From: a virus
DNA: 11,853 nucleotides
UHGV virus genome: UHGV-1569475
Strand: one strand, 5' to 3'
A program made the position numbers. Positions 9,001 to 11,853 of this stretch are shown piece by piece; position 1 is the first letter of the stretch; each line of letters starts with the position of its first letter.

Positions 9001-11853
9001 GCTTAAGTCCGCTTTCCGGCACTCTGGCGCTGTATTTGAGATCCTGCCACCAGGCGTAAAAATGGAATTTATAATCCTGTGGCGTCAGCGCCAGCCCTGA
9101 TGCAGTGATTTCCTGTGCCCGGTTACTCATCTCGTAAAAATCGCCACCCACACCTTCAGCAGTGGATTCATCAAAAATAATGCATTCATCAGAGACGGCA
9201 TTAAGCGTACCGGTTCGCAGCTCTTTCGCCTTAGCCGGATATTTCGCGCAAATTTTGCCGTGTTCTGAGATATGCAGGCGCTGCACCGTACCTGAGCGAA
9301 ATGAGGTTGCCACCTGAATACTCGAGCCGTGACCAAACAGGATATAGCCACCGCTGGCACCGCTACGACGTTCAACGATGGTGAATGAGGCTCTCAGCCA
9401 GTCAGGGAGATGATCAAACGGTACAGCAATTTTTGTGCGGAAAATTTCACTGGCAGCCTGTTTATCCTGAGCGACGATCCCGCATTTGAGATGCGGAATG
9501 AATAATGCCTGGTCGAGAAGATAAATATCAATGGCTGTGGAAAATCCCAGCTGGCGCGCTTTCAGGATAATGTTTTTATTATGCATGTTACGAAACAACT
9601 GACGTTGCGCCGGTCGCATTCTGAAGGTGACCAGTTCACCTTTTTCGTTCTGTATTTTGTAGAGATGATTGAGGCGCCACCAGGGATTGCTCAGTTTTGT
9701 CATAATGAACAGACGTTGTTCGGTCTCAGTCATTTCTGACGGTTCATCACATCGCGGTTCATTCTTCCGGAATGTCATCCAGTCTCCCCGAATTACTCAT
9801 TTCATGCAGCGATGACACGATGTCACTGACAGGCGTAACAACGCCCCGACGCTGGCTGGTCAGAATATCGGTTTCCGCTCTGAGTTTATCTCTGGCAGCG
9901 TTGATTCTTTCCCGGTCAGCACGAAGTTTTGGTGCTGTTTCCGCCAGAACGTCCAGCGTCAACAATGAGCGTTCAATTGACTCGATACGGGCAATATTCC
10001 GGTCAAGGGCCTGTTCTGCTTTGAGTATTTTGTCGTACAGGGCAACACGGGTTTCCACGTCAGCCGCCTCTTTCAGGTCGGCGAACATTTTTTTCAGTGT
10101 TCCTGTTACTGAAAGTGCGCGGGCACGGGTGAACACCAGTTCATCGAACAGCACCATATCGGACGCATCATCCATGAGGTTATCTGCCTCAAGATACTTC
10201 GCATATCCACGGTGTCTCACGGCGTGGGTGTTACGGTCGCTAAACCGGGCAACGGGGTGAGGATTGCCCGATCTGCTGTTGCGTTTCGTTTCTGCCGAAT
10301 TTGCGCAGTTTTTTGCGCATTTTTCATCACTGCCATCATCGCCGTAAGACTCGTCATTACTGGACTCGTCATCAGCTCCATGCGCATTTTTTTGTGCGCT
10401 TTTTTGAGTGTCAATTTGCGCACTTTTTTGCGCATTTTTCTGCGCACTTTCCTCTGTATTTTTGGGGGAGTTTTTGCGCAGTTTTATGTACCGACGAGCC
10501 GTGCCATAGCAGATATTGTTCTGTCGACACCAGTCCTGAAGTTTTATGCCAGTTCTGGCATGTTCGCGTCGGAATGCCTGCTCCAGTTTTTTCCAGTCCA
10601 GCTTTGCCATGTCACTTTCTGACGTCCTCTGTTAAAAACTGACGCATAATGACCGCTGTGATTTTTCAGAATTCACACAGCAGCGTCTTGTTTGATTGAT
10701 ATTTACACAATATGGTTGTTTTATCCGGTTTCTTCCACCACCGCACCGGACAGGCGGCCATGCGGGAAAACGCTCACGTTACCTGAAAACGTGGAAAGCC
10801 CGGTATGCATCGTTTTTGATTATCCCCACACACTCGCGCAGGAGGTCCAGTGTCTGGCTGAGGTCTCTGTTAATGCGGGAATACTGCGACGATACGGCGC
10901 ATCAGCAAAACTTATTTCAGGCACTGAGTGCTGATATATTCCTGTGCCCCTTCCAGCTGCTTCTGCATCGTCATCAACCGCTCTCTGAGGGTGAAATAAT
11001 CCCGTTCAGCGGTGTCTGCCAGTCGGGGGCCGGTTGCATTATCCACGCGGGCGGTGCCGGTGGCTTCACGCACGGGACCTGGACAGGTGGCGTTGATACG
11101 CAGGCTGCGGCAACCAGCGGCAACGTCAGCGCGAAGAGTTTCATTTTCAGCTCTCGCATCAGCTAATTCCCTCGAGTATTTTGCATCGAGCGCAGCAACA
11201 TCGCGCTGGCGCACCTGCATATCAGTAATGGTGGCGTTTGCCAGCTCCAGCTCTCTGGCTTTTTTATCGCGCTGCGCTTTGTAGGTGATGGCGTTATCGC
11301 GGTAATGATTCAGCCCCAGACTAAGCACACCACAGGCTACCAGCAGGACAATAATCACCACACACAGAACACGGTTCATATCACCACCAACGGATTGCCC
11401 AGACCAGAACAGCAATGGCCACAATACGAATGGCAAATGCCATTGCCCGAATAAGTTCAGCACTCATCTTTTTAAAGTTCACGATTTCAGCGCAATGACC
11501 AGTTTTGCCAGCCCATACAGCATCGGAGACACAGCAATACCAACAGCCACCCACTTAATAGCAAAAGCCAGCGCTCTGCTGATGTCATCAGTCACTGTCA
11601 CCCCAGCAGCCCCGACGAAGACAACATCACCCAGGCGAGGGACAGAAAAAGAGCAACCAGCATTAGTGAAAATGAAATACCGACAATCACACACAGGACC
11701 TTTGCCGGCGTTATGAGTTTGTCTGACATCTTTACCCCTTGATAGCAGTAATTAACTGGGCAACCACCCATAAAAACGGAATCAGCCAGACCAGCAAAAA
11801 TTTCCAGTCCATTTTTATCATCTTCATGCTGCGGTAGCTCTCCATGCAGCAAG

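Follow-up and report, generated by a model that had tools for sequence, protein, structure and literature searches.

Predicted membrane-peptide genes between the endolysin R and the spanin genes Rz/Rz1 of Shiga-toxin-phage-type lambdoid prophages

Layout of the stretch and position of the endolysin

The sequence analysed here, a stretch of 11,853 nucleotides (nt) of the virus genome UHGV-1569475 that we call the window, carries towards its right-hand end the spanin genes Rz and Rz1, and the subject of this report is the stretch that precedes them on the minus strand (positions 11380–11853, 474 bp). A sequence-only reading had noted that short hydrophobic reading frames occupy this position, where an endolysin gene would be expected in a lambda-like phage. 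All of these frames are present on the minus strand and are designated here open reading frames (ORFs) A to D. Read from the window edge leftwards, the locus is composed as follows.

11824..11853, minus strand: end of an antirepressor-like gene, the last 9 codons and stop (LAAWRATAA*), cut by the window edge
11732..11827, minus strand: ORF A, 31 amino acids (aa), MKMIKMDWKF..., in full MKMIKMDWKFLLVWLIPFLWVVAQLITAIKG; predicted single-pass membrane peptide
11598..11729, minus strand: ORF B, 43 aa, MSDKLITPAKVLCVIVGISFSLMLVALFLSLAWVMLSSSGLLG; predicted single-pass membrane peptide; RefSeq WP_001280935.1
11479..11601, minus strand: ORF C, GTG start, 40 aa (38 aa from an alternative GTG at 11595), ending ...TDDISRALAFAIKWVAVGIAVSPMLYGLAKLVIALKS
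11381..11467, minus strand: ORF D, 28 aa, C-terminus IRWW; RefSeq WP_032140280.1
10912..11379, minus strand: Rz (i-spanin), 155 aa; Pfam PF03245 (Phage_lysis) 2.8e-49, phrog_13 1.5e-74
10974..11159, minus strand: Rz1 (o-spanin lipoprotein), 61 aa; PF06085 4.4e-21, phrog_3198 9.6e-29

The genes are closely packed. The TGA stop of the antirepressor-like gene overlaps the start of ORF A (ATGA), ORF B begins 2 nt past the ORF A stop with a Shine-Dalgarno sequence (AAGGGG) 5 nt upstream, and the TGA stop of ORF B overlaps the GTG of ORF C (GTGA). ORFs C and D are 11 nt apart, and ORF D stops 1 nt ahead of the Rz ATG at 11379, such that its last codons, TGG TGG TGA (TGGTGGTGA), are at the same time the Shine-Dalgarno-like GGTGGTGA of Rz. 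ORF C is represented in RefSeq by WP_042004856.1, there with a longer start, and ORF A is annotated as a coding sequence in phage PhiR5_1. Rz1 lies embedded in Rz in the +1 frame and carries a LVAAAC lipobox-like signal; the pair thus has the make-up of a two-component spanin, an i-spanin with an N-terminal transmembrane domain (TMD) and a Phage_lysis domain together with an embedded lipoprotein.

Nowhere in the 474 bp is there a frame similar to a lysozyme, and no muralytic domain was found there, ORFs A–D being without Pfam, NCBIfam or PHROG lysis matches. Since the junctions are tight, Rz/Rz1 unambiguous and a muralytic frame lacking, the initial description of the stretch was accurate. The one frame in which an endolysin C-terminus might have hidden, the fragment at the window edge, is identical to the end of WP_016237404.1 in a near-identical locus (L001), and is the end of a KilAC antirepressor-like gene. 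Over the 954 bases that comprise the ORFs and Rz, identity is 99% to an E. coli isolate from wastewater and 96% to phage PhiR5_1, and in both records the gene order is a class II (phage 21-type) holin S, the lysozyme R, a KilAC antirepressor-like gene, the small ORFs and Rz. R is a 177-aa signal-arrest-release (SAR)-type lysozyme whose end lies 1417 nt upstream of Rz, outside the window (L001–L004). The R–Rz gap of these near-identical loci consists of a 231-aa KilAC antirepressor-like gene (PF03374, ANT) and ORFs A–D. An insertion between the endolysin and Rz, one of the options raised by the sequence-only reading, is thus borne out by loci 96–99% identical to the window; judged by these alignments, an insertion parts R from Rz/Rz1 in Shiga toxin (Stx)-phage-type lambdoid prophages, and the stretch forms its distal end. 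The arrangement of R, insertion and Rz is already known from public records, and the 'missing' endolysin is explained and ordinary.

Peptide families, coding evidence and membrane character

The four ORFs fall into three families, recognisable by the motifs WKF.../RWW (A), MSDKLI (B) and MKNG-AFAI (C and D). D is a shortened paralogue of C, and C is itself an N-terminally shortened member of the MKNG...AFAI family. Comparison with composition-preserving shuffles gave z 5.2 for the paralogy of C and D, z 4.2 for homology between A and an ORF termed X that stands alone in the shortest R–Rz gaps (computed with the A'/X ORFs), and a weaker z 3.8 for A and C. Among PHROG families, A matches phrog_6632 (7.7e-5), B phrog_4906 (4.5e-21), C phrog_3246 (1.9e-27) and phrog_1115 (1.7e-24), and D phrog_4493 (3.8e-6), all five of which are annotated without function. 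Pfam (up to E 1) and NCBIfam returned no match for A–D, the PADLOC-DB models (E up to 1) none for A, B, the longer form of C, D, X or the antirepressor-like protein, and Rfam no family in the region at the gathering threshold or at E up to 1. Small toxins of type I toxin-antitoxin systems (Hok, TisB, Ibs, Ldr) were considered and rejected, there being no Rfam match and the ORFs being sense-oriented inside a coupled operon.

The coding status of the ORFs was assessed from polymorphism within each family: polymorphic sites were counted by codon position, the mean ratio of non-synonymous to synonymous polymorphism (pN/pS) was calculated, and synonymous and non-synonymous changes in the most divergent pair were compared by Fisher's test. 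Rz and the lysozyme served as comparisons.

C: 12/4/30 sites at first/second/third positions; pN/pS 0.19; p 3.7e-14
Longer C: 20/10/40; pN/pS 0.27; p 1e-9
A core: 3/4/8; pN/pS 0.28; p 0.0016
X: 0/4/4; pN/pS 0.16; p 0.005
B: 21/16/25; pN/pS 0.48; p 0.0019
D: 11/7/16; pN/pS 0.46; p 0.026
Rz: 68/56/95; pN/pS 0.32; p 0.0082
Lysozyme: 52/49/142; pN/pS 0.12; p 3.3e-36

Synonymous changes outnumber non-synonymous ones in every small-ORF family. B and C are uninterrupted in 128 of 128 related loci; B keeps its length of 43 aa in E. coli homologues down to 65% identity, and the C family, which occurs also in E. coli, extends to Salmonella and E. marmotae at 69–85% identity with an invariant FAI..AV core. 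The frames are kept as ORFs in relatives, and by these measures of divergence ORFs A–D are real genes, conserved and under purifying selection, D having the weakest evidence of the four for a functional protein. Frameshifted B variants are occasionally seen elsewhere (L026, P0191, P0198), and a search for related loci based on the B alignment added no diversity, all copies recovered being identical. The possibility that the ORFs are fragments of one larger decayed gene was rejected, each family being intact in other architectures (X only, longer D only, longer C with D, B variant only). In relatives with the longer C, polymorphism in the N-terminal MEKYKRILLRLT extension is nearly even over codon positions (about 8/6/10, obtained by subtracting the C counts from those of longer C), so that translation there probably starts at the ATG of MKNG, 6 nt after a GAGG Shine-Dalgarno sequence.

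Each peptide has one 19-residue segment with a Kyte-Doolittle hydropathy of 1.9–2.9 (2.31 in A, 2.87 in B) and one predicted hydrophobic helix of about 19–26 residues, followed by a tail of 2–14 residues. The N-terminal flank is basic in A, B and C; the four-residue flank of D is not. From the hydropathy segment, the short tail and the N-terminal flank we infer an N-in, single-pass topology in the inner membrane. The C-terminal tails of the ORFs, KG, SLAWVMLSSSGLLG, ALKS and AIRWW, hold at most one charge.

Small predicted membrane proteins in a lysis cassette invite comparison with holins, and the sequence-only reading had named unrecognised holin- or antiholin-like genes as a possibility. 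As a statement of family membership this did not hold. The ORFs gave no match to the holin family PF04971, or to any other Pfam or NCBIfam holin model, even at E up to 1, nor to PADLOC; an alignment of the C/D family with the local holin family by hhalign reached a probability of 0.2%; and the generic holin signature of a TMD followed by a highly charged hydrophilic C-terminal domain is absent, the tails having no more than the single charge just mentioned. The phage 21 S68/S71 pinholin (PF04971) resembles ORFs A–D as a small inner-membrane protein of the lysis cassette, but whereas it has two TMDs, A–D have a single one; they also lack a charged C-terminal tail and a dual-start motif, and no homology to the pinholin was detected. 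That at least one of A–D is nevertheless a true holin or antiholin of a new class, either hole-forming or a holin-binding timer, would fit their size, predicted membrane location and place in a lysis cassette, as well as the fact that relatives flank the holin of an unrelated phage (contig L261, described below). It would fit, too, the similarity of C to TMD2 of the local pinholin, which beat 99.6% of shuffles; this p of 0.004 is, however, unremarkable among 28 pairwise tests, and with the hhalign result the C segment was rejected as a copy of pinholin TMD2. As a class II holin already adjoins R, we regard a new holin or antiholin here as very unlikely. A similar candidate, B as a duplicate of the Rz TMD that would act as an anti-spanin decoy, was likewise rejected, the shared VLCV(I/V)(V/I) being not significant (p 0.036 among 28 tests).

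The R–Rz interval across lambdoid prophages

The generality of the arrangement was surveyed in 78 viral contigs in which R could be identified and Rz was 88% identical or more. In none of the 78 loci is the R–Rz interval zero; it falls into discrete classes of 297–1426 nt that hold 1–4 small ORFs in mosaic combinations.

297–298 nt, 33 loci: one ORF, X (...WKFILIWLVFVIMASGYFIGQIRWW); the H-19B type (298 nt), unannotated there
335–336 nt, 4 loci: a longer D
438 nt, 2 loci: longer C and D
489–491 nt, 4 loci: longer C and a B variant
642 nt, 27 loci: A', B, C and D, for example in E. coli 55989; B, C and D are RefSeq hypothetical proteins
1000–1013 nt, 2 loci: 933W type, with ant and a B variant left unannotated in 933W
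1413 nt, 4 loci: the window's own type
1426 nt, 2 loci: longer C, a B variant and a 311-aa DNA methyltransferase abutting Rz

X is annotated with 45 aa in phage CP-1639, and its true start is probably an internal ATG, giving about 32 aa (MAEKLSTWKF...), like the short ORF A of the window, because an in-frame stop occurs just before the internal V-M in 7 of 34 loci (297/298-nt class, L003–L082). The methyltransferase is of the N6/N4 type (PF01555), and its stop overlaps the Rz start (L174–L176, L060, L066). In 933W, the 153-nt 'intergenic' gap between ant and Rz (NC_000924.1 27424..27576; L087 5425..5577) holds an unannotated B-family ORF; the sequence ...MISDKLITLAKILCVIVGISFLVMLVAIFFSTAWRVLTLSGLVG for this ORF is taken from a 933W-type locus (L030), not from 933W itself.

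Beyond this lineage the picture differs. In a scan of the Enterobacterales by Rz alignment, with one genome per species, about 37 of 45 other loci have an ORF of endolysin size that adjoins the Rz start or runs into it, and these endolysins include SAR-type lysozymes of 177–179 aa, R's own family; the X-type ORF was found in just one other Escherichia species. Because lysozymes of the same type directly overlap Rz in other species, the gap with its small ORFs is, on these alignments, a lineage trait of Escherichia/Salmonella Stx-type lambdoids and not a requirement, and the R–Rz system would be able to work without it. Within E. coli, at least 565 of 5426 complete genomes carry at least 80% of the window array together with Rz. 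In some 30 assemblies of other organisms (Kitasatospora, Brevibacillus, Pedobacter, Flavobacterium and others; L181–L204, L207, L234, L249–L251) an apparently identical lambda R–Rz was found, often on short contigs, which looks like contamination of these assemblies with lambda DNA.

The cassettes of lambda, phage 21 and P22 have the same kinds of genes in the same order, with Rz1 inside Rz as in the window, and the window Rz is 69% identical to that of lambda. In canonical cassettes, however, the endolysin stop overlaps the Rz start (lambda copies, K-12 Qin), whereas the window lineage always has 297–1426 nt between them. K-12 Qin was also considered as a source of named small proteins and rejected, as rrrQ directly overlaps rzpQ there and no such ORFs are present. 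Also among the closest described layouts is that of 933W (NC_000924.1), whose record gives the order S, R, ant, Rz, Rz1 and bor and annotates ant with 'possible regulation of host cell lysis'. Like window-type loci, 933W has a pinholin-type S, a 177-aa R, an antirepressor-like gene between R and Rz and an embedded Rz1. The inserted genes are different, a 231-aa KilAC protein (PF03374) in the window type and a 189-aa Ant of the P22_AR_N/ORF11CD3 type in 933W, and are followed by four small ORFs in the former but one, of the B type, in the latter. The term 'non-canonical lysis cassette', offered by the sequence-only reading, is thus apt as a description, but the layout is an ordinary one for Stx-type lambdoid prophages, as the R–ant–Rz order of 933W and the 298-nt gap of H-19B attest.

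The remaining genes of the window also fit the 933W phage type, with a P22-like portal, a Phage_capsid_3 capsid and an SU10 adaptor, a virion module that 933W shares, and a collagen-repeat tail fibre. The tail-fibre gene (3..1373, minus strand) runs off the left edge and encodes an N-terminal CarboxypepD_reg domain, about 190 residues of collagen-like G-X-Y (PF01391, 1.6e-28) and a Phage_fiber_2 repeat. In the small-terminase position lies a 283-aa ORF (9759..10610, minus strand) that has no Pfam match and contains low-complexity near-repeats (AQKNAQKSAQIDTQKSAQKNAH). Rz and the terminase genes are separated by about 300 nt (10611..10911) in which no convincing ORF lies; 933W carries bor on the opposite strand at this position, and the window does not. 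Outside the window, Rfam models place STnc100 and AsxR just downstream of stx2B in 933W (L087 778..1037) and STnc100 at 166..371 of L001.

Contexts of relatives and a possible role in lysis

A profile search with the C/D family against 1.84 billion representatives returned just 21 proteins, which combine an MKNG..AP..AFAI core with a C-terminus of the form ...YG.AKLI..K or ...(I/V)RWW. In Salmonella, a C-family ORF immediately precedes Rz in prophages with three different holin/endolysin types upstream. In L261, a metagenomic phage contig of high GC content, the order is capsid, an RWW-ending C/D-family ORF, a phrog_4493 ORF, holin (phrog_920, 1.3e-6), a 51-aa transmembrane ORF, a 32-aa phrog_6632 ORF (MNGTLPAWRFLLLWLIGVMLAATPFIHAVRWW, 3.9e-9) and Phage_lysozyme (1.7e-13), the last small ORF ending 3 nt ahead of the lysozyme gene in a cassette unrelated to that of the window. 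A link to lysis is drawn from the Salmonella ORF before Rz, both behind three holin/endolysin types and in the chromosomal remnant described next, and from the A and C/D relatives that flank the L261 holin; the over-representation of lysis cassettes among the contexts of family members is suggestive. A-type and C/D-type families co-occur in at least four separate settings, and that they travel together in this way speaks for a functional module. A Salmonella chromosomal remnant near a SopD-domain gene (L262–L264, 3001..3601) holds a 49-aa RWW-ending ORF and Rz with neither endolysin nor holin; it adjoins an IS110 transposase and is listed in more than 1600 assembly blocks.

Several observations weigh against a role in lysis. 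In L179, a terminator, a C-family ORF and an ATGA-coupled WKF...RWW ORF lie between the tail assembly chaperone and the tape-measure region; in L178, two RWW ORFs precede a portal-like gene; and single family ORFs follow tail-fibre genes in L088 and L260. With relatives outside lysis cassettes, position alone is not proof of such a role, and the Rz-linked contexts may represent one inherited linkage and not independent events. A, C and D lack N-terminal residues that longer family members of other architectures possess, D has a weak ribosome-binding site in addition to its weak evidence for selection, and searches of the literature on Stx-phage lysis and with the peptide strings, WP accessions and PHROG identifiers found nothing on A–D, whether publications, expression data or a phenotype.

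These same contexts bear on whether A–D are moron-type cargo unrelated to lysis, that is, a mobile membrane-peptide cassette with, for example, a superinfection-exclusion or host membrane-protein effect for which the R–Rz gap is a permissive hot spot. Morons in the late operons of lambdoid phages include HK97 gp15, between the tail chaperone and tape-measure genes, and lambda bor and lom; classical morons are active in the lysogen, each being equipped with a promoter of its own and followed by a terminator. Like them, ORFs A–D are small accessory genes of the kind that often encode membrane proteins at late-operon junctions, with a content that is mosaic between relatives, and the R–Rz junction is empty in K-12 Qin and most other Enterobacterales. 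Relatives occupy classical moron slots, after tail fibres and, in one case, the HK97 gp15-type slot between tail assembly chaperone and tape-measure genes, and the R–Rz gap has also taken up two different antirepressor-like genes and the 311-aa DNA methyltransferase.

Expression signals cut both ways. Where ant is absent, R is followed by a strong intrinsic terminator of 15 pairs, then by a conserved leader containing a ribosome-binding site, and then by the first small ORF; most contexts without ant are bounded upstream by such a terminator (L086, Salmonella L090/L091, L179), as cargo might be. In E. coli 55989 (L086 2290..2420) it lies about 100 nt past the R stop, has A-run and T-run flanks, is possibly bidirectional and is preceded by a conserved GGATAACACGAAATCCTGCGAAC...; similar terminator and leader modules are found in Salmonella (L090 2905..2955, L091 2915..2955) and in the tail-gene context (L179 475..515). 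In Salmonella the terminator, leader (AAGGCAAGGGAGAA) and small ORF before Rz follow a GH19 endolysin or a P22_AR_N-type antirepressor. No Rfam family matched the post-R terminator, which could be a 3'-UTR-derived RNA end (UTR, untranslated region). Against cargo, a sigma-70 consensus scan of the coding strand from R to Rz in the window architecture found no promoter-like site, although weak or non-sigma-70 promoters could escape it, and lysogen expression is not evident; the terminator, where present, is upstream of the genes and not downstream. Terminator-like sites between R and Rz in the window architecture amount to three weak 5-bp stems inside C and D, about the number seen in shuffled controls. 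The lack of a PADLOC match and the over-representation of lysis cassettes, including the unrelated one in L261, also speak against cargo, which we consider an unlikely explanation but one to be taken seriously.

The position of the ORFs would alternatively be explained if they were functionless translated spacers that carry ribosomes to an Rz that has lost its overlap with R, the last ORF supplying the Rz Shine-Dalgarno sequence. The gene just upstream of Rz ends no more than 8 nt from the Rz ATG or overlaps it, whether D, X, the longer D, the B variant or the methylase, the TGG TGG TGA of D forms the Shine-Dalgarno-like motif, and little protein-level selection was seen for D, all of which accord with spacers. 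C, on the other hand, is constrained, its 30 third-position polymorphisms against 4 at second positions and its low pN/pS being unexpected of a spacer. The families, including the RWW ending, are kept in L178, L179 and L261, where Rz does not follow directly, so that RWW is a protein-level feature and not only a ribosome-binding site for Rz. One ORF would, moreover, suffice for coupling, yet arrays of 2–5 recur. An RNA hairpin that would enforce coupling was considered as well: the minimum-free-energy structure pairs the Rz Shine-Dalgarno sequence and AUG with D codons, but it is no more stable than shuffled sequence (z -0.26), and obligatory coupling is for this reason not claimed. We judge it improbable that A–D are spacers only.

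The account we put forward is that of an R–Rz insertion made up of the KilAC gene and four late, coupled, lysis-accessory inner-membrane peptides, and as a whole it stands an even chance of being correct. Under this account, the Q-antiterminated late transcript would be the sole messenger for A–D, and their translation, coupled from one ORF to the next, would pass ribosomes on to Rz, standing in for the canonical overlap of R stop and Rz start. The peptides would insert N-in into the inner membrane while holin, SAR lysozyme and spanins accumulate, and would tune the membrane state or triggering and not themselves make holes or cut the wall. They would be accessory and not essential, because SAR lysozymes of the same type, 177–179 aa, directly overlap Rz in other species. 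That A–D are dispensable accessory lysis peptides which tune the membrane state or the triggering of holin or spanin is, taken by itself, a tentative proposal to which we give slightly less than even weight. Still more tentative, and on balance doubtful, is the broader idea that the WKF/RWW, MSDKLI and MKNG-AFAI peptides are single-pass inner-membrane regulators of lysis cassettes, of a class not recognised before, which travel alongside Rz or the holin and set lysis timing or gate the activation of spanin, pinholin or SAR endolysin in a whole lineage that includes Shiga-toxin phages, in which toxin release is governed by the timing of lysis.

The layout of R, insertion and Rz was already known, and what interest remains lies with the peptide module in front of Rz; ORFs of this type are inconsistently called by annotation pipelines, being unannotated in both 933W and H-19B. 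One to four conserved genes for such predicted membrane peptides are invariably found before Rz throughout a large group of lambdoid prophages in E. coli and Salmonella to which most Stx phages belong, and two of the three families, A and C/D, have relatives on either side of the holin in a phage unrelated to this group. If A–D do not tune lysis, they would represent compact and easily deleted small-protein cargo of late operons; if they do, they would be expected to affect burst timing and, with it, the release of Shiga toxin.

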